A stretch of DNA of 64,000 nucleotides from a virus (Duplodnaviria; Caudoviricetes): IMG/VR virus record IMGVR_UViG_2744054422_000002, positions 29,022 through 93,021 of that record. One strand, written 5' to 3'. The notes below the pieces were generated by a model. The model had not been told where the DNA came from. It ran no database searches and saw nothing but the letters and a program-made list of their open reading frames with translations. Shown here piece after piece: positions 28,506 to 37,560 of the stretch; positions within the stretch are counted from its first letter, which is position 1, and every line of letters starts with the position of its first letter. The position numbers were made by a program, and so were the translations under genes.

Positions 28506-29498
28506 GTGAACGATAACTCGCCGTCGCGTCTGGAGATGCTGCACTTCGCACGCCGCATCGCTGAACAGCAGCTCACCCAGATCGACCGGTGGATCGCCGC
28601 GGAGGAACGGCGGGAAGCGGAACGTCAGCACGGCATCGCGGCCCGCCCTCCCGCACCGGACTGGCTGGTCGAGCACGGCCTGTCCGGCCAGGACTCGATG
28701 TACGTCCACACCGGCGACTGCTGGAACGCGGGGAAGCGCTCCAAAGGCGTCACGAGGGACACGGCGCTGCGCGCACTCACCGAGGGTGGCGCACCAGCCT
28801 GCCCTCACTGTCGGCCGGACACCGCGCTCGGCATCCTGGAGGGCTTATTCAGGCGCTGCGCGGCTTCCGTGCGCTCTCCCACTTCAACCGCAAGTGCGCG
28901 AATTGCCCGTTCTGCTACAGTCCGCGCCCCGCGCGTCTTTGAGCGGAGCGCGCGGCAGGGAGAGGCGCCGGCGGTTATGCCGCTACAGCGTCCGGACGGC
29001 AGGGGTCGCGCATCCCCGGCCGCCGGTGCCACCTCACCCGGCTTCCGGGCCCCCGCAACCCCGAGCGTGGGGGCCCGGATCACTCCTCAGAACAGAGCGA
29101 TCGTGTCGATACCCGGCGCCTCATCAGGCTCCCCGTCGTCCAGGCCGAGGTCGAGAGCGAGCTGCTCCCCCGGCACAGGCAAGTCCACGATCTCCAGCGA
29201 CCCGGCGCAGGACACGAGGGCGTCGCCGAAGATCTCGGGCCGCTTCGTCGGGTCGTGTCGCCACAGGCGGCCCTTGCTGGGGCGTCCGGCGACTATCCCG
29301 GCAGCGATCGACCGGGAGCAGAACGCGCACTCAAGTCGGGGCATCTTCACACAAACCAGTGTGCCGATGCCCGGCCTGCCGCGTACAGCAGACCGGGCAT
29401 CAGGGTCATCAGTCAGGCTGATGTTGCAGGGAGTACGTTCACCTCGTGTGGGCTTCCATGGCCTTCGCGGCCTCGCACAGCGCCTTCAAGTCGCTTAG
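28506..29498 (+). CDS. DUF6233-like protein (core ends ~28845; C-terminal extension probably read-through)
   Basis: PDWLVE.G...VHTGDCW...ALRAL...ACPHCRPDTALGIL motif. The extension overlaps antisense genes and looks non-coding. Confidence 0.6.
   Translation: MNDNSPSRLEMLHFARRIAEQQLTQIDRWIAAEERREAERQHGIAARPPAPDWLVEHGLSGQDSMYVHTGDCWNAGKRSKGVTRDTALRALTEGGAPACPHCRPDTALGILEGLFRRCAASVRSPTSTASARIARSATVRAPRVFERSARQGEAPAVMPLQRPDGRGRASPAAGATSPGFRAPATPSVGARITPQNRAIVSIPGASSGSPSSRPRSRASCSPGTGKSTISSDPAQDTRASPKISGRFVGSCRHRRPLLGRPATIPAAIDREQNAHSSRGIFTQTSVPMPGLPRTADRASGSSVRLMLQGVRSPRVGFHGLRGLAQRLQVA
29087..29350 (-). CDS. Small Zn-binding hypothetical protein with clamp-binding-like motif
   Basis: CAFC...RHD...SCAGS and QLALDL motif. 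Confidence 0.65.
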   Translation of the reverse strand: MKMPRLECAFCSRSIAAGIVAGRPSKGRLWRHDPTKRPEIFGDALVSCAGSLEIVDLPVPGEQLALDLGLDDGEPDEAPGIDTIALF

Positions 29499-31578: not shown

Positions 31579-33171
31579 TCACACCCCGATCCGCCGCCCA
31601 TACGCGGCTGCCGCGCCGCTCCCCGGCCCAGCCCGGCCGGTCTGGCCCGGCTGCGGGGCCCGCGGGAGCGGCGGGTGAACGATGGCACCCTTGTTGGCCT
31701 CGGGGATCAGGCCGTACACGAGGATGCACGAGGCGTCGATCCGGCCCGGCGAGTTCGGGTCGGTCGACATCCACGTCGCCCACTCGTTCTCCAGGTCGGT
31801 GAACATGCCGCGCAGCCGGACCCGGTCCTGCACCATCTGCTGGGCGATCGGCTCGGCGCGCAGCAGCTTGCCCTGCTTCGCGAACACCATGTCGATGCCC
31901 GGCATGAGGACGTTCTTCGGGATGACCCCCTCGCGCTGGAGCGTCTCCCACGACGTGCGGATGGCCAGCACGCACATGTCGCGGCCGTAGTTGGCCTCGA
32001 CGTAGATCACGGCCGCGTTCGTCTCGTACGCGAGCAGGCAGGCCGCGGTGGACCACTCGGCCGACGACATCGCAGCCGACCGGTCGTGCGTGACCCAGAC
32101 CCGGCTGTCGTCGCCGACGAAGCCGCCGATGACGCCGGCGACGTCCCGGCCGCCACCAGACGGGTCGACCGACACGGCGATCTTCTGCGGCTCGACGACC
32201 GTGACCGCGTCACGGATGAGGCGCAGCAGGTCGCGGGAGACCAGGGCTCCTTCGGCGGGCTGCGGGTCGCCCTGCGCCATGGAGTGCCAGTCGCGGACGC
32301 TGGACGTCTTCTTGACGTCCGCCCACCAGGCGAACAGCGCCCGCCGGTTCTTCGTGCGGATCTTCGGGTGCGGCAGCGGGTCGCCGTCCTCACGGCCGAG
32401 CGGGTCGGGCCCGAACTTGCTCGGGTTGGCGATCGCCGGGAGGTGGACGACCTTCCACCGGCCGCCGTCCTCCAGCCGGCCTTCCTCCTCCAGCCGCCTG
32501 CCGCAGAAGTCATCGGGGTGCCAGCGCGTTTGGGCCACGACGACCGCGTTCCGGTCGGGCTGCAGTCGCTTGAGGGCGGCCGATGACCACCAGTCATGTA
32601 CGTGCTCGCGCTGTCGGGGTGACTCGGCGTCGGCGCGATCTTTGTGTGGGTCGTCGACGACCAGCACGTTCACGTCGAAGCCGGTCAGGCCCGAGCCGAT
32701 CGACACCGAGCGGACGCCGCCGCCCGCGGTGGTGTCGTAGTCCTGCGCGGCCGATGAGCCGGCGAGGAGCGCCAGGTCGTACTCGTCGCCGTAGTCGGTG
32801 ATGTACCGGCGGATCGTCTTGCCCCGGCGCATGGCGAGGTCATCGGAGTACGAGGTGACGGCGACGCGGTCCTCACCGTGCAGGCACAGCCACCAGAACG
32901 GGAACCACTCGGCCGCCAGGGACGACTTCCCGACCTGGGACGGCGTCCAGACCATCAGCCGGTCGTACTCGCCCTTCTCCAGGCCGACGAGGGCCTCGGC
33001 GATGACCCGCAGGTGCGGGCGCACGCGGTACACCCTCTCCAGTCCCCGGGCCAGCGTGACCGGGTCGCACAGGAGATCCCGCGCCATCGCCTTCTTCGCA
33101 GCCTGGAGCCGCTGGTACACCTCGGCGTCGTCGAGGTGCGCCAGCTCATCGACGTTCTGCGGCTTGCTCAC
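31579..33171 (-). CDS. Terminase large subunit
   Basis: PSQVGKS Walker A, VVDDPHKD Walker B, QTRWHPDD, VSVDPSGG nuclease motif and SPGRIDA. Confidence 0.95.
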   Translation of the reverse strand: MSKPQNVDELAHLDDAEVYQRLQAAKKAMARDLLCDPVTLARGLERVYRVRPHLRVIAEALVGLEKGEYDRLMVWTPSQVGKSSLAAEWFPFWWLCLHGEDRVAVTSYSDDLAMRRGKTIRRYITDYGDEYDLALLAGSSAAQDYDTTAGGGVRSVSIGSGLTGFDVNVLVVDDPHKDRADAESPRQREHVHDWWSSAALKRLQPDRNAVVVAQTRWHPDDFCGRRLEEEGRLEDGGRWKVVHLPAIANPSKFGPDPLGREDGDPLPHPKIRTKNRRALFAWWADVKKTSSVRDWHSMAQGDPQPAEGALVSRDLLRLIRDAVTVVEPQKIAVSVDPSGGGRDVAGVIGGFVGDDSRVWVTHDRSAAMSSAEWSTAACLLAYETNAAVIYVEANYGRDMCVLAIRTSWETLQREGVIPKNVLMPGIDMVFAKQGKLLRAEPIAQQMVQDRVRLRGMFTDLENEWATWMSTDPNSPGRIDASCILVYGLIPEANKGAIVHPPLPRAPQPGQTGRAGPGSGAAAAYGRRIGV

Positions 33172-33803
33172 TCCTCGGTGTCGTCCTCGCCGCCAGGGTC
33201 GGGCAGACCGTCGTCGTCCTCGTCGTCGGCTCCGTCCAGCGCCCTGGTACGCCGCTGCACGGCGGCGGCGAGGTCAGCCAGCCGTACGCGCCGCTGCTCC
33301 GCGGGCATCTGGGCGAACTCGGCGAGCTGCACGGCGAGCGGGTTCCCGCCCGGGCCGGTGACCGCGATCGTGGCCGCCGGGTCGCCGAACAGGACGCGCC
33401 GGTGCCTCATGGCGACGTCGAGCAGGCGGATGAAGTCGCCCACGGTCATCTTCTGCGCGTCGAGCGTGCCCAGGCGCTGCGCCAGCTTGCCGACGGCCGC
33501 GCCCAGGATCCTCGCGTCGCTCTCGGCGGCTTTCCGGCGCTCCTCGACCCATCCGGCCTCGTAGAGCCGGTCCAGGTGCCGGTCCCACGCCTCGGCTCGC
33601 TCACGCCACCGGAAGCGGGCCGCCGCCTTCCGGACGGTGACCGCGTGGAGCTGTAGCCCGTCCGCAGCCTTCTGTAGGGTCCGTGTCCGGCCGAGGTCAC
33701 GGTAAGTGATGAACTGGCCGTGTTTGCGGGCGGTCTCGTCGGGTTGCTGCTCCCATGGGTCGAGGGTCGTACTGAGCGTGATCGGGGGCTGGTTGGCGGT
33801 CAT
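33168..33803 (-). CDS. Terminase small subunit (probable)
   Basis: ATG 33803; PWEQQPDET...FITYRDLG..R...WRERAEAWD motif; overlaps terL start. Confidence 0.75.
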   Translation of the reverse strand: MTANQPPITLSTTLDPWEQQPDETARKHGQFITYRDLGRTRTLQKAADGLQLHAVTVRKAAARFRWRERAEAWDRHLDRLYEAGWVEERRKAAESDARILGAAVGKLAQRLGTLDAQKMTVGDFIRLLDVAMRHRRVLFGDPAATIAVTGPGGNPLAVQLAEFAQMPAEQRRVRLADLAAAVQRRTRALDGADDEDDDGLPDPGGEDDTEE

Positions 33804-33808
33804 GGCGG

Positions 33809-34705
33809 TCAGGCCGGGATGTCGAGGTACTGGCGGGCCCACAGTTCGAGGGCCTTGTGGCGGTGCTCGGCGGGGATGTCGCCACGGGCTACAGCCTGCT
33901 GTAGTGCCTTTTCGACGGTGGCGGCTGCCTTGGTGGGCATGGCGTCGGTGTGGAACAGGGTGGTGAGGGGAGCCATGCCGTGGTGGCGGGGTTCGCCTGT
34001 GTCCTGGTCGAACCAGCCGTCGGTGAGTTCGGGGGCGTGGGCTTTGAAGGACTCCAGGATGATGCCGAGGGCTGTGGCGACGTTGGTGACGTCGTAGCTC
34101 TTGGAGGCGAGGTCGAGGGCGCCCATGGTCTGGTCGTACTGGCGTAGGGCGGCGACCCATACGGCGTCGGAGGAGGCGGCGAGGCCGAGGGCGTCGCGGA
34201 GGACGTCTTGGGCTTCCTTGAGGTCGTCGGGGAGGAACACGATCGCGAGGGTCTGGAAGGTGAGGTTGGCTTCGCCGAGTGAGGGGCTGTCGAGGTCGGC
34301 GAGGAGTTCGAGGGTGGCGTCGTCGATGCCGGCGTACTGGCGGAGGTCGATCTCGTCGATCTTCTCGTAGATCGTCTTGAGGATGGCGAGGTCGTCTTCG
34401 CCCGCGATGGCGTTGTGGCTGACCTGGAGGGCGAGGCGCTTGCTCTCGGTAAGGCGGTCGCTGGTCTCCAGCCAGAAGATCTCTTCGAGTCCGGCTTCCA
34501 CGGCGGCTTTCACGCGGTGGTTGCCGGACAGGATGTGGCGTACGCCGGTGTCGACGTCGTGCCACACGAACGGCGTGGAGGTGAGGGTCTCGTCTTCGCG
34601 GAGGTTCGAGACGAGCTGCTGGTACTGCTCGTGCCGCATGTAACGGGCGTTGAGTTCCAGGGACTTGAGCGTCTTCGGGTCGCCCTTGGCGATGTCGACC
34701 TTCAC
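33809..34705 (-). CDS. ParB/Srx-like nuclease-domain protein of the DNA-modification locus
   Basis: GTG 34705 coupled to the upstream stop; NARYM...LVSNL...ILSGNHRVKAA...SHNAIAGEDD. Confidence 0.85.
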   Translation of the reverse strand: MKVDIAKGDPKTLKSLELNARYMRHEQYQQLVSNLREDETLTSTPFVWHDVDTGVRHILSGNHRVKAAVEAGLEEIFWLETSDRLTESKRLALQVSHNAIAGEDDLAILKTIYEKIDEIDLRQYAGIDDATLELLADLDSPSLGEANLTFQTLAIVFLPDDLKEAQDVLRDALGLAASSDAVWVAALRQYDQTMGALDLASKSYDVTNVATALGIILESFKAHAPELTDGWFDQDTGEPRHHGMAPLTTLFHTDAMPTKAAATVEKALQQAVARGDIPAEHRHKALELWARQYLDIPA

Positions 34706-36114
34706 TTCTTCACATCCTTGCCGTATCGCTTCTTCCACTCGGCGAGCACGTCGGCGAGCGGCTTCCCGGAGAAGGGGGCCCCGTACTGGAGTTGGAACTG
34801 CTGGGCGTAGTACGAGTCGTTCGCGTCGATGCCCTTGGCCCAGTCCTCTTTGAGGACGTCCTTCTGATCGCGCTTCAGCAGGCGTAGGACGCCGCGGTAC
34901 TTCATCGACACCGGCCGCTTCGTGAACGCCGTGGTGGCGAGGGACTGGTAGCGCCGGTGGCCGTGCCGCCACGCGAGGAACTGGGCTTCGCGGCTGATCG
35001 CGGCCATGACGATCAGCTTGCTGAGCTTCGCGTACCGGCTCGTGGACACCGGGAAGTCCGACAGCATGTAGACCGTGGGCTGCTGCGGGAGGTGCGCGCC
35101 CCAGTTCCCGAGGGTCGGAGCCCAGGAGTAGGCGAACACGCCGACGAGCTTCTGGTCGACGAGGACGGCCATGGCGAGCGATTCAGAGCCGGGCCGGATG
35201 TTCGCGTTCATGTACGCCGAGCGGAGCGCCGCGAACTGGCCGGAGGTGAGGACGGCGAGGCTGATGCTGTCGCCGATCTCCTCGCCGGACAGGTGGGGGC
35301 CGGGCCAGGCTTCGGTGTGCTGGCGGGGCTCGACCAGGCGCATCGGTCCGGAGTTGGCGTAGACGTAGATCGGGATGCCGCGGTTCGTGGTCCTCGTCCG
35401 GCCGCGCAAGTAGGCGGCCATCTCCGGCACTTCTTCGTTGGTGCCGAGGAGCCAATGTTCCCGGTCGGTGATCCGCCCGATCAGGTACTCCAGCTCAGGG
35501 TCTTCCATGATCGTGAAGTCGGGCGGCGTCCACTCGAACATCTCCTCCAGCTTCGCGAAGTCGCGGACGAACGCGGCGCCCGCGCCGTGGAACGGCGGGT
35601 ACGAGATGACGCCGGCGCCCTCGGGGATCTTGTCGACCCACGTCAGGGCGTCCTCGGCTGCGTACGACGCGAGCTTGAGCGTCTCCTGCGCCGCGGTGAC
35701 CTTGGCGACGGTCTTGGTGTGCAGGTCGGGCCACTGCTGCTCGTACGCGCGGCGCATCTTCGCCCAGTACGGGTTGGACTCCTTCTTTCCCATGAGGGGG
35801 GCGAGGCGCGTGCACAACAGCATCGTCGCGAGCTGCTGTTCGGGGGTGTCGTGGTGCTCGGTGATCCACGGGAACTCGGCGACGGCCGGTTCGGTGAGCA
35901 CGAGCGGCATCGGGTCGGCTGCGTAGTACCGGCCGATTGCCGTGGAGTACATCAGCACGTCGCACGAGTGCAGGCGCTTGCCGAGGGAGGCGATGGTCTT
36001 CTCGACGGTGAAGTTCCCGCAGCAGACGTTGTAGACGTCGGTGACGTCGGTCCACAGGGAGACGTGCTCGCGGACGATGCGGCACATGTCGGATGGGATC
36101 GAGCCGTGGAACAC
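34702..36114 (-). CDS. Adenine-MTase-like (Rossmann) + GNAT/Mom-like fusion, putative anti-restriction DNA-modification enzyme
   Basis: N-terminal FHGSIP, NVCCGNFTVE (motif I-like) and ISYPPF (motif IV-like); C-terminal AVLVDQKLVGVFAY..VYMLSDF..YAKLSKLIV..LATTAFT..SMKYRG GNAT-like pattern; adjacent to ParB and terminase. Confidence 0.75.
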   Translation of the reverse strand: MFHGSIPSDMCRIVREHVSLWTDVTDVYNVCCGNFTVEKTIASLGKRLHSCDVLMYSTAIGRYYAADPMPLVLTEPAVAEFPWITEHHDTPEQQLATMLLCTRLAPLMGKKESNPYWAKMRRAYEQQWPDLHTKTVAKVTAAQETLKLASYAAEDALTWVDKIPEGAGVISYPPFHGAGAAFVRDFAKLEEMFEWTPPDFTIMEDPELEYLIGRITDREHWLLGTNEEVPEMAAYLRGRTRTTNRGIPIYVYANSGPMRLVEPRQHTEAWPGPHLSGEEIGDSISLAVLTSGQFAALRSAYMNANIRPGSESLAMAVLVDQKLVGVFAYSWAPTLGNWGAHLPQQPTVYMLSDFPVSTSRYAKLSKLIVMAAISREAQFLAWRHGHRRYQSLATTAFTKRPVSMKYRGVLRLLKRDQKDVLKEDWAKGIDANDSYYAQQFQLQYGAPFSGKPLADVLAEWKKRYGKDVKK

Positions 36115-36212
36115 GGGGCGGCTCCGGAGGCGGTCGGCGATCAAGACGGGCGCAGATGGTAGCCGAACGGGCTTTCCAAACATTCCGCCGCGTTTGCGCT
36201 GGTCGCATGACT

Positions 36213-36246
36213 GAGGCCCTCACCCCAGGGAAGGGGCGAGGGCCTC
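36213..36246 (-). terminator. Hairpin immediately 3' of the tRNA
   Basis: GAGGCCCTCGCCCC-loop-GGGGTGAGGGCCTC 14-bp stem with one G-U pair. Confidence 0.6.
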
Positions 36247-36248
36247 GG

Positions 36249-36322
36249 TGGAGCGCCGGCCAGGACTTGCACCTGGACCTCCCGACCGGAAGTCAGGCGT
36301 GCTGCAATTGCACCACCAGCGC
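36249..36322 (-). tRNA. tRNA-Gly(UCC), atypical D- and T-loops
   Basis: GCGCTGG TG GTGC AATTGCA GCAC G CCTGA CTTCCGG TCGGG AGGT CCAGG TGCAAGT CCTGG CCGGCGC T CCA: full cloverleaf, anticodon TCC, U73, encoded CCA. Confidence 0.9.
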
Positions 36323-36373
36323 ATTTACCGGGCGCACCGCCACTCGGAACATCCGGCAAAAGCTGACATTACC

Positions 36374-36970
36374 TCACTTATCTTCGTGAAACGCTTCCTC
36401 GCTGGAGACAACTTCGGCGGCGATGAGTTTCATGACGGCGATCCCACTCATGACCCCCACGCTGCCCATGCCCGCATAGACAAGCATCATCGCCCAACCC
36501 TGCAGGTCGAGCAGCATGACGAACACATACCCCAGAACCCACGTTGTGGTGGCGAAGGAGGTAATCACCAAAAGGCCCCGGCGGTAGATAGCGGGGCGGC
36601 TCCTGGCCGACTCCGGGCTGACGACGCGCGCGGTCGCGACGGCCCCGAAAATCGCGAGCTGTAGGGCGAACCACATACCCTTGACGAACTTGGTGATCCA
36701 CAGCCCGTTGCCGCGGAGGATGTACCAGAGGTCCGACTTCCACTTCTTGTAGAGGGCGTCGCGGACGGGCTCGGGCGTGACCACGCGTGCGATCTGGAGG
36801 ACGAGGAAGGGGATCCGCAGCGTGACCGCCTTCGTCAGCGCCATCGTCACCTCGTAGATGACGGCAGCGATGCCAGCGGCGATGAGCGCGACGGTCCAGC
36901 CGTCGACGTCGTGGCCGATGAACGTGAAACCGTGTTCGGCGACGCCGCCGCTGGCCGAGAGGATGTTCAC
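36374..36970 (-). CDS. Membrane protein paired with PadR
   Basis: Several TM helices; directly follows the PadR gene. Confidence 0.7.
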   Translation of the reverse strand: MNILSASGGVAEHGFTFIGHDVDGWTVALIAAGIAAVIYEVTMALTKAVTLRIPFLVLQIARVVTPEPVRDALYKKWKSDLWYILRGNGLWITKFVKGMWFALQLAIFGAVATARVVSPESARSRPAIYRRGLLVITSFATTTWVLGYVFVMLLDLQGWAMMLVYAGMGSVGVMSGIAVMKLIAAEVVSSEEAFHEDK

Positions 36971-36975
36971 GGTGC

Positions 36976-37380
36976 TCAGATCCCCCTCGCGGCGGGGCGG
37001 AGCCCGTTGAGCTTCGCAGGGAAGCAGCCCAGGGCGCGGGCGGCTCGGTTGGCCTGGGGCTTCAGCTTCCATCCGGGGGACGACGCTGGCGGGCGGACGC
37101 TGTCGCTGAGTTCGACGAGGGCGAGGTGGGCTTCGCGGGCGCCGATGTCCGTCATCTCGTAGTAGTGGCGAGCGGGGCGCTTCTCCTTGCTCGGGTCGAT
37201 GTCCTCTTCCTCGCAGGTCACCCAGCCTGCCTTTTCCAGGCGGGCGAGGGCCGGGTACAGCGAGCCGCTGCCGACGTGGGCAGCTTCCGAGAGTTCCGTG
37301 GCGTAGAAGATGCGGTCCGGATCTTCAAGGAAGGTCTGGAGCATCCTCACCATCGCCGGGGTGAGGTTCTTCTGGTCCAT
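36976..37380 (-). CDS. PadR-family transcriptional regulator
   Basis: YATELSE...GSGSLYPALARLEKAGWV...RPARHYYEMT. Confidence 0.85.
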   Translation of the reverse strand: MDQKNLTPAMVRMLQTFLEDPDRIFYATELSEAAHVGSGSLYPALARLEKAGWVTCEEEDIDPSKEKRPARHYYEMTDIGAREAHLALVELSDSVRPPASSPGWKLKPQANRAARALGCFPAKLNGLRPAARGI

Positions 37381-37560
37381 GCCCCAAGAGTACACCTCGC
37401 TCAAGTCCTGACTGAGGTCTTACCTGCTTAATCAACACCCGACTGAGGGTCTCTTAGCGTGGGGAGCGAGGTGGATTCGAGGCGTGACCTGCGTGGATAC
37501 GCCTATGGCCGCCTCGCGGCGGCCACGTGGAGAGGAGGAGGGCGGAGGGGGCTGAGCGAC

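Follow-up and report, generated by a model that had tools for sequence, protein, structure and literature searches.

Why should a phage keep a single glycine tRNA gene just ahead of a gene that resembles a DNA adenine methylase? The question is raised by a 64,000-nucleotide (nt) stretch of Caudoviricetes DNA (positions 29,022 to 93,021 of the IMG/VR record IMGVR_UViG_2744054422_000002; hereafter, the window), which is part of a 93-kb provirus record. On its minus strand, a tRNA-Gly gene, a gene for a fusion enzyme with a Dam-like and a GNAT-like domain, a ParB-like gene, and the terminase genes terS and terL follow one another in this order. An initial annotation, made from the sequence alone, had proposed that the tRNA feeds a glycyl-type base modification of DNA. 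We compared the locus with its homologues, and the counts place the tRNA-enzyme-parB arrangement far beyond chance. As an answer to the question, we consider it reasonably probable that the locus is a Mom-like module for tRNA-dependent adenine modification of DNA, equipped with a private glycyl carrier.

Conserved linkage of the tRNA, the fusion enzyme, and parB

In the 64-kb window, ARAGORN detected a single tRNA, namely tRNA-Gly(tcc) at 36249-36322. The same tRNA is the sole match in the whole record to R1, a covariance model built from 31 of the tRNAs that accompany such enzymes (module tRNAs). Its 3' end lies 134 nt from the start of the fusion gene. The initial annotation had described a sole tRNA, co-oriented with and ahead of a methyltransferase-like/GNAT fusion, and ARAGORN and Pfam bear this out. 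The fusion gene has an open frame up to an ATG at 36183; its likely start is the GTG at 36114, because the homologues begin at residue 24 with MFHGSIP, and the protein then has ~470 amino acids (aa). The stop codon of the fusion gene, TGA at 34702-34704, and the GTG start of the ParB-like gene (34705) share bases in the sequence GTGA. This overlap and the PHROG matches agree with the earlier description of a fusion gene coupled to a ParB-like gene and followed by terS and terL. The features of the module are as follows.

36249..36322, minus strand: tRNA-Gly(UCC), 74 nt including the encoded CCA (ARAGORN, Rfam tRNA model, R1)
34702..36114, minus strand: fusion enzyme gene (Pfam; start placed by homologues)
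35290..36111, minus strand: Dam-like domain PF22555, residues 25-298 (Pfam, Foldseek)
34723..35271, minus strand: phage GNAT-like domain PF22559, residues 305-487 (Pfam, AlphaFold2 model, structure search)
33809..34705, minus strand: ParB-like gene, 298 aa, with a conserved L-S-G-N-H-R motif (PHROG)

Homologous loci were collected from named phages, IMG/VR, species genomes (one genome per species), and metagenomes, and they were scanned with ARAGORN and R1. Some contigs recur in several collections (L027, L162, and L260, for example, are the same locus), which makes the counts partly dependent on one another. A tRNA-Gly or tRNA-Gly-like element was found in both of the named phage records examined (of 15 matches), in all 5 close IMG/VR relatives (86-91% identity), in 68 of the 80 species genomes (30-43% identity), in 66 of 75 further IMG/VR loci, and in 65 of 80 metagenome contigs, where R1 found 64 and ARAGORN alone found that of L239. 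The initial annotation had named such co-occurrence as a check on its proposal; tRNA-Gly accompanies the homologous genes in ~80-88% of the loci of three collections. In the species genomes, 61 of the 68 elements are on the same strand as the enzyme gene with their 3' end within ~220 nt of its start. Among the species genomes are those of Streptomyces, Micromonospora, Actinoplanes, Nonomuraea, Gleimia, Oscillospiraceae, Selenomonadaceae, Chloroflexota, and Planctomycetota.

Two isolated phages illustrate how divergent the element can be. In Mycobacterium phage Jeon, a tRNA-Gly(tcc) is annotated directly upstream of the enzyme homologue (L002:7893-7966), and this tRNA gave no match to the Rfam tRNA model at E <= 1. 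Gordonia phage Jollymon carries an unannotated, degenerate tRNA-like element (L001:7854-7927), which was detected by R1 with 50 bits and missed by ARAGORN and Rfam. The T arm of the latter is degenerate, and its anticodon loop reads C-C-C-C-C-G-G. Elements of this type will be undercounted by standard annotation.

A ParB-like homologue lies beside the enzyme gene in 84/87, 75/75, and 74/80 loci. A terS gene of the window type was found within 3 kb in 60/87 and 20/75 loci, and these numbers are lower bounds. Some loci are rearranged, with the tRNA located between the enzyme gene and parB (L078 and L079) or just after parB (L083, L140, L229, L230, and L276). The tRNA, the enzyme gene, and parB stay together in these loci also; therefore, the unit is a conserved trio. 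Non-glycine calls by ARAGORN were limited to four in all loci: a Leu (L082), a Glu (L277), and two dubious 89-nt 'Arg' calls (L035 and L047), which are on the opposite strand ~1.5 kb downstream of the enzyme gene.

Two variations of the arrangement were observed. In L046, L152, L176, and L269, the tRNA is inverted just upstream of the enzyme gene, and that of L046 looks canonical (U33, A37, and T-T-C-G-A). The latter may be a host-type tRNA or mark an integration site, outside the private lineage described below. Two tandem tRNA-Gly or tRNA-Gly-like copies precede the enzyme gene in L139, L142, L151, L219, L224, and L244; such tandem copies occur in three of the 75 further IMG/VR loci, and they sometimes differ at the first anticodon base (ccc with acc, or acc with tcc, for example).

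A separate lineage of tRNA-Gly

The window tRNA was recognized by the Rfam tRNA model (52.4 bits, E 3.4e-9) and by R1 (90.3 bits). Its acceptor stem contains G1-C72, C2-G71, and G3-C70, followed by U73 and the encoded CCA. The anticodon loop, CUUCCGG, keeps U33 and has G at both positions 37 and 38. The D loop (AAUUGCA) is devoid of GG, the T loop (UGCAAGU) has G55 instead of U55, and the T stem includes the pair A51-U63. Our reading of the sequence agrees with the initial annotation in each of these letters, namely the identity elements, the D loop without GG, the GTGC T loop, and A51-U63. Consequently, this tRNA departs from a canonical elongator at G18-G19, T54-U55-C56, and A37, while U33 and U8 are kept.

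The family statistics are based on 125 distinct sequences. The identity set of bacterial glycyl-tRNA synthetase (GlyRS), which we take to be G1-C72, C2-G71, G3-C70, C35, C36, and U73, is almost perfectly conserved: G1, C2, C35, G71, C72, and U73 are present in 125/125, and G3, C36, and C70 in 124/125. U33 is kept in 89/125 (otherwise C in 23, A in 9, and G in 4), U8 in 91/125 (A in 29), and U55 in 94/125 (G in 27), and at least one of the three is lost in 85/125. Position 34 is variable (U in 77, C in 25, A in 20, and G in 3), position 38 is G in 100/125, and the pair 51-63 is G-C in only 2/125. CCA is encoded in 67/125, and some anticodon loops differ from seven bases. ARAGORN, which is independent of R1, gives the same picture of conservation. 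The cloverleaf itself is supported by covariation, with 95.9% of cells paired, 14 pairs changed on both sides, and 0/500 shuffles as good.

The initial annotation had stressed two deviations of the window tRNA, its GUGC T loop and the missing D-loop GG. Neither extends to the whole family, in which G55 is restricted to the 27 sequences above and the D-loop GG is present in 45/76 tRNAs. Judged from the aligned sequences, G55 and the GG-less D loop are traits of the clade of the window, and the family-wide departures fall at U33, U8, positions 37/38, and the pair 51-63.

All tRNA-Gly genes of three host genomes have U8, the D-loop GG, U33, A37-A38, and TTCGA, with UCC, CCC, and GCC each represented among their anticodons. 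The module tRNAs share 51-66% identity with host tRNA-Gly, versus 78-95% with the module tRNAs of other species or genera. Moreover, the distances between the tRNAs correlate with those between the enzymes (Spearman 0.80, n=61 loci, 0/999 permutations as high). These comparisons indicate that the module tRNAs are a lineage of their own, which is distinct from host tRNA-Gly and co-diverges with the enzyme. In short, the positions read by the synthetase are kept and those read by the ribosome are relaxed; therefore, a glycine carrier fits better than a decoder.

Two other purposes of the tRNA were considered and rejected. Codon supply does not fit, since GGA is rare nearby (7/103 Gly codons in the four adjacent genes) and the anticodons are varied. 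A remnant of a prophage attachment site does not fit either, since the tRNA is complete, is located inside the provirus near the terminase genes, and is present in isolated phage genomes.

The closest parallel is found in staphylococci. According to Rietmeyer et al. (2020, PMC7826273), the T loop of their non-proteogenic tRNAGly species reads TGC or TGT where TTC is usual, and their binding to EF-Tu and the ribosome is poor, in line with the initial annotation. The same paper describes how the normal GlyRS charges these tRNAs for use by the non-ribosomal enzymes FmhB, FemA, and FemB (PMC7826273). The window tRNA has the same TGC in its T loop. However, the staphylococcal lineage is chromosomal, occurs only in staphylococci, and serves peptidoglycan synthesis, whereas the module tRNA is viral and adjoins its own enzyme gene. 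The module tRNA is also spread over Actinomycetota, Bacillota, Chloroflexota, and others, and its departures vary by clade (U33, U8, G55, and odd anticodon loops).

The fusion enzyme and its ParB-like partner

Pfam assigned residues 25-298 of the enzyme to PF22555 (DAM-like-phage1; E 8.4e-96, 320.9 bits, cut-off 27) and residues 305-487 to PF22559 (GNAT-phage-like; E 6.7e-54, 182.6 bits, cut-off 27). Both domains, the Dam-like followed by the GNAT-like, are present in 118 of the 120 homologues listed. The family comprises 737 clusters (50% identity) at E <= 0.001 and 230 at 1e-30. NCBI labels the homologues 'putative antirestriction adenine methyltransferase', and an NCBIfam search gave no family for the fusion enzyme or the ParB-like protein. 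A triple fusion with ParB was not present among the 120 and 150 homologues listed; a search for homologues of at least 864 aa found none, which is weak evidence. The AlphaFold2 model of the full-length enzyme has a mean predicted local distance difference test score (pLDDT) of 85.8 and a predicted template modeling score (pTM) of 0.59.

The N-terminal domain has a Dam-type Rossmann fold. Foldseek matched it to Escherichia coli Dam (2ore_E; E 8.4e-5, template modeling score 0.47 on the target) and further to the Dam structures 4rtn, 4rtq, and 2g1p with a probability of 1.00; several of the Dam matches are complexes with DNA. The motifs also follow one another as in Dam: first the motif I-like loop, next an acidic residue behind strand 2, and then PP-aromatic behind strand 4. 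The motif I-like loop reads G-C-S-G-N-F-T in the family and C-C-G-N-F-T in the window, where Dam has F-x-G-x-G in place of C-S-G-N-F. The acidic residue, D75, is invariant in the family. At the place of the D-P-P-Y of Dam, after strand 4, the window enzyme reads Y-P-P-F. Of the 221 family proteins in which this motif was located, 217 carry Y or F ahead of PP, and none carries D, N, or S. The Dam motif IV, (D/N/S)-P-P-(Y/F/W), is thus lacking, and the alignments indicate a Dam-like fold without the catalytic Asp of Dam.

The resemblance is confined to structure. Searches of the Dam-like domain against Dam sequences, PDB chains, and the Pfam Dam families gave no sequence-level match, and hhalign of the family profile against one E. 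coli Dam sequence gave a probability of 0.2%. The best local profile alignment, which is non-significant alone, pairs Y-P-P-F with D-P-P-Y.

The same motif is the site of an insertion in some homologues of 600-724 aa (P0154 and P0180, and probably also L082:3001-5100). The insertion follows (Y/F)-P-P-F directly, starts with Cys, and ends with His-Asn followed by Thr, which are hallmarks of inteins; in P0154, it contains a LAGLIDADG-like block. Pfam splits the Dam-like domain at profile position ~177 of 274. The placement of an intein exactly after the motif suggests that (Y/F)-P-P-F matters, although it is unable to work as in Dam. Another homologue (P0264, 609 aa) has a C-terminal extension resembling DUF559 (E 1.3e-5) and MTES_1575 (2.4e-6), both below the cut-offs; these families are restriction-endonuclease-like. 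Stop codons interrupt the translated C-terminal region of the enzyme in L073 and L077; the cause may be a frameshift, a pseudogene, or faulty assembly.

The GNAT-like domain was also modeled alone with AlphaFold2 (pLDDT 86.1, pTM 0.85). Its best match among solved structures is Mom of phage Mu (8bv8_B; Z 11.0, root-mean-square deviation 3.6, 154 aligned residues). Mom ranked first among the top 998 chains of Foldseek and also among 48,161 representative chains, which were searched independently of Foldseek. The glycine-rich acetyl-CoA loop after strand 4 is absent in the family, with L-S-D-F-P-V at this place in the window enzyme, and Mom is likewise devoid of this loop. FemX/FemA and leucyl/phenylalanyl (L/F) transferase were not among the best 50 matches of either structure search, which is no evidence of a difference. 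In the comparison with Mom and FemX that the initial annotation had suggested, the fold match to Mom stands, and sequence homology to Mom or FemX was not found. Residues 356-437 of protein P0001, in the GNAT-like domain, weakly match PHROG 2443, 'amidoligase enzyme', in its C-terminal region (E 3.6e-5), a hint that other phages have the domain fused to ATP-dependent ligases.

The ParB-like protein of the window matches ParB-like PHROG families with E values of 3.4e-10 and lower. The Pfam model ParB_N (PF02195) gave E 0.083 for the window protein, which is below the cut-off, and detected 10 of 25 members of its family at E <= 0.01, with a best value of 3.4e-5. A phage ParB homologue that activates a post-replicative DNA-modifying enzyme on double-stranded DNA is described by O'Toole et al. 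(2026, PMC13229309). In those systems, the 5mYOX thymine dioxygenases, the ParB homologue is likewise encoded beside the DNA-modifying enzyme and is needed by it on double-stranded DNA. They differ from the window module in their enzyme class (iron/2-oxoglutarate dioxygenases) and target base, and a corresponding role of the ParB-like protein in the window is a proposal.

The module is surrounded by the following features.

36213..36246, minus strand: stem-loop of 14 pairs (RNA folding of 36115-36250)
33168..33803, minus strand: terS, terminase small subunit (phrog_6299, E 5.8e-20)
31579..33171, minus strand: terL, terminase large subunit (phrog_38, E 4.3e-72)
36976-37404, minus strand: gene for a PadR-family regulator (E 1.1e-10), upstream of the tRNA
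36374-37072, minus strand: open reading frame of 232 aa overlapping the PadR gene, with hydrophobic stretches, a predicted membrane protein

The stem-loop begins 3 nt past the CCA of the tRNA, has no U tract, and is present in both the minimum free energy and the centroid structure. The folding of the 136-nt stretch 36115-36250 has a z value of -2.58. A simple terminator scan did not call the hairpin, which lies between the tRNA and the enzyme gene and may act in processing or attenuation. Scanning of 33500-37500 for promoters and terminators gave no promoter-like site and a single terminator-like site, which lies elsewhere. A family search with the 232-aa open reading frame gave no match.

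Proposed mechanism and alternative explanations

To our knowledge, tRNA-dependent modification of DNA is known from a single enzyme, Mom of phage Mu, whose glycyl-tRNA donor was reportedly first described in a 2023 preprint and published in 2026. According to Silva et al. (2026, PMC13219725), Mom belongs to the GNATs and moves the glycine of Gly-tRNAGly onto adenine N6 in double-stranded DNA, after which the adduct rearranges to N6-carbamoylmethyl-adenine. The donor that the initial annotation named for Mom is therefore real. The paper further describes Mom as acting post-replication and late in infection, by which restriction is evaded, and as having the essential residues R111 and S124 and a helix-turn-helix (HTH)-like insert at 175-209 (PMC13219725). 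Mom (PF25680; PDB 8bv8) and the window enzyme are both phage-encoded and share the GNAT fold. However, Mom has no detectable sequence homology to the window domain, which falls outside PF25680. Mom is a single-domain protein with the HTH-like insert, whereas the window GNAT domain is fused to a Dam-like domain and coupled to a ParB-like protein. Mom takes any host tRNA-Gly isoacceptor, whereas the module mostly has its own divergent tRNA-Gly.

The linkage to tRNA-Gly suggests Gly-tRNA as the donor, and the Dam-like fusion suggests an adenine as the acceptor. We propose the following mechanism. The tRNA-Gly would be charged with glycine by the host GlyRS. In the window tRNA, G55, the D loop without GG, A51-U63, and G37-G38 would keep it largely off EF-Tu and the ribosome; elsewhere in the family, loss of U33 or U8 and the free position 34 would serve the same exclusion. 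The module tRNA would thus constitute a private pool of activated glycine. The Dam-like domain, which has kept the adenine pocket (PPF) and lost the catalytic Asp, would bind the double-stranded phage DNA and flip the target adenine. The GNAT-like domain would move the glycyl group from the 3' end of the tRNA to N6 of this adenine, as in Mu Mom, and the adduct may rearrange to N6-carbamoylmethyl-adenine, as for Mom. The translationally coupled ParB-like protein would load or activate the enzyme on double-stranded DNA. Once modified, the DNA would be protected from restriction by the host. The gene order, with terS and terL downstream, is compatible with late expression, as is the case for mom, but does not by itself imply the coupling to packaging that the initial annotation had proposed.

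A more specific reading is that the tRNA serves outside translation: as a private tRNA-Gly lineage charged by GlyRS, it would have evolved jointly with the dead-Dam/GNAT enzyme and its ParB-like partner, as the cofactor for an amino-acid-derived mark on adenines of the phage's DNA. We hold this with slightly better than even confidence, and the same applies to its extension to many phages of Actinomycetota, Bacillota, Chloroflexota, and others.

Several points weigh against the proposed mechanism. The data establish the parts, their folds, their conserved linkage, and the conservation pattern of the tRNA; charging, weak binding to EF-Tu and exclusion from translation, DNA as the target, the chemistry, the role of ParB, and the anti-restriction purpose are what we infer from them. 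The lead of Mom in the structure search is less than 1 Z, with ordinary acetyl-CoA GNATs at Z 10.6 and 10.3; therefore, this is a tie by the rule of the search tool. Comparison with one Mom sequence by hhalign gave a non-significant probability of 0.8%, in an alignment that pairs L-S-D-F-P with L-H-D-D-M-P of Mom. The two belong to different Pfam families, the GNAT-like domain matching only PF22559 at E <= 10 and Mom being PF25680. Sequence searches of PDB chains with the protein and with the profile found no Dam, Mom, or GNAT match and returned chance matches only (a phosphodiesterase and CaMKII). In the full-length model, the relative placement of the two domains is uncertain at a pTM of 0.59. 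The conserved motif I-like loop and D75 leave room for a methyltransferase role or one dependent on S-adenosylmethionine (SAM).

The tRNA data also have their limits. R1 was trained on module tRNAs, so invariance at strongly modeled positions is partly built in. The correlation between tRNA and enzyme distances could arise partly from shared host phylogeny. U8, U33, and U55 are all retained in 40/125 tRNAs, and the window tRNA retains U8 and U33; therefore, module tRNAs may also be used in translation. About 12-19% of the loci have no tRNA within 2.5-3 kb (12/80 species genomes, 9/75 further IMG/VR loci, and 15/80 metagenome contigs). For the 12 species-genome loci, R1 with filters off gave chance-level matches only (E >= 1.2); 4 of the 15 metagenome loci have less than 100 nt of upstream sequence. 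The existence of such loci means that the enzyme presumably works with a host tRNA there, or that the tRNA is non-essential.

The alternative that survives best, though we regard it as unlikely, retains Gly-tRNA as the donor and the tRNA as its dedicated partner and places the acceptor outside DNA, or has the GNAT domain modify the aminoacyl-tRNA itself. Proteins (ParB, terminase, or one of the capsid), cell-wall precursors, and small molecules are conceivable acceptors, in the style of Fem and L/F transferase; the second variant would resemble the toxins AtaT and TacT. The small margin of Mom over other GNATs (<1 Z) is consistent with this explanation, GNATs that use or modify aminoacyl-tRNA have varied targets (PMC13219725), and AtaT reportedly acetylates Gly-tRNAGly (PMC7595197). 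However, every full-length member fuses the GNAT domain to a Dam-like adenine methylase fold, and a ParB-like, DNA-binding partner is present in 84/87 loci. This fusion and this partner point to DNA, and to adenine. The absence of the glycine-rich acetyl-CoA loop from the family alignments argues against an acetylating toxin.

It is less probable still, and in our estimate improbable, that the enzyme is an ordinary or unusual DNA adenine methyltransferase that depends on SAM and has the GNAT domain as an accessory. The tRNA would then be translational or replace host tRNA-Gly cut by a defense system, and it would be linked to the gene merely through shared late expression. The NCBI family name, the motif I-like loop, and the invariant D75 suit such an enzyme, but the catalytic D/N/S of motif IV is missing in all 221 proteins with the motif. 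An ordinary tRNA would agree with U8 and U33 of the window tRNA and with the combination U8, U33, and U55 in 40/125. However, the linked tRNAs are Gly only with position 34 free, and A34 occurs in 20/125; we know of no use of A34 for Gly by bacteria. U33 is lost in 36/125, some elements are too degenerate for ARAGORN and Rfam, GGA accounts for 7% of the nearby Gly codons, and the hosts already hold tRNA-Gly with UCC, CCC, and GCC. The linkage, moreover, survives rearrangements and spans phyla.

We give very little credence to the idea that the tRNA-like element is a cis-acting RNA signal, either an RNase P/Z site defining where the enzyme mRNA begins or a device that senses glycine charging and controls expression. 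Its usual position, 15-220 nt ahead of the enzyme gene in the same orientation, would suit such a signal, as would the strong hairpin behind the window tRNA. However, a processing site needs neither invariant C35, C36, and U73 nor an encoded CCA (67/125). Several elements are located after the enzyme gene or parB, and those of L046, L152, L176, and L269 are on the opposite strand; such positions are at odds with a 5' leader.

There are RNA adenine methylases with a Rossmann fold. The notion that the enzyme modifies an adenine of the module tRNA or of host tRNA-Gly, for example to reprogram decoding, finds a parallel in GNATs acting on tRNA bases such as TmcA (PMC13219725), but it is just as improbable as a cis signal, since the ParB-like partner and the adjacency to terS/terL fit DNA, the N-terminal domain is structurally nearest to Dam, an enzyme that acts on DNA, and a tRNA made just to be modified by its neighbor has no evident purpose.

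We therefore return to the Mom-like module with a private glycyl carrier. The openly accessible literature gave no description of the module or of PF22555/PF22559. The main text of the Mom paper makes no mention of ParB, a methyltransferase, a fusion, a phage-encoded tRNA, or the gene neighborhood (PMC13219725). The dependence of a DNA modification on tRNA is known, and what is probably new here is the enzyme family, its architecture, and the dedicated tRNA. The proposal is directly testable because cultured and non-pathogenic pairs of phage and host carry the kit, namely phages of Mycobacterium smegmatis (the Jeon group) and Gordonia phages (the Jollymon group).

If the proposal is true, the window contains the first virus-encoded tRNA dedicated to DNA modification, and the fusion enzymes would join Mom as the second family of tRNA-dependent DNA-modifying enzymes, one that evolved independently and may yield a different product. 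This chemistry would be widespread, given the 737 clusters of the family. The conserved features of the tRNAs could reveal how such enzymes recognize their donor. A function would be provided for 'odd' single tRNA genes of phages and for genes annotated as methyltransferase or hypothetical. Phages would then avoid competition with translation in the same manner as staphylococci do for their cell wall, by using a tRNA that the ribosome ignores.

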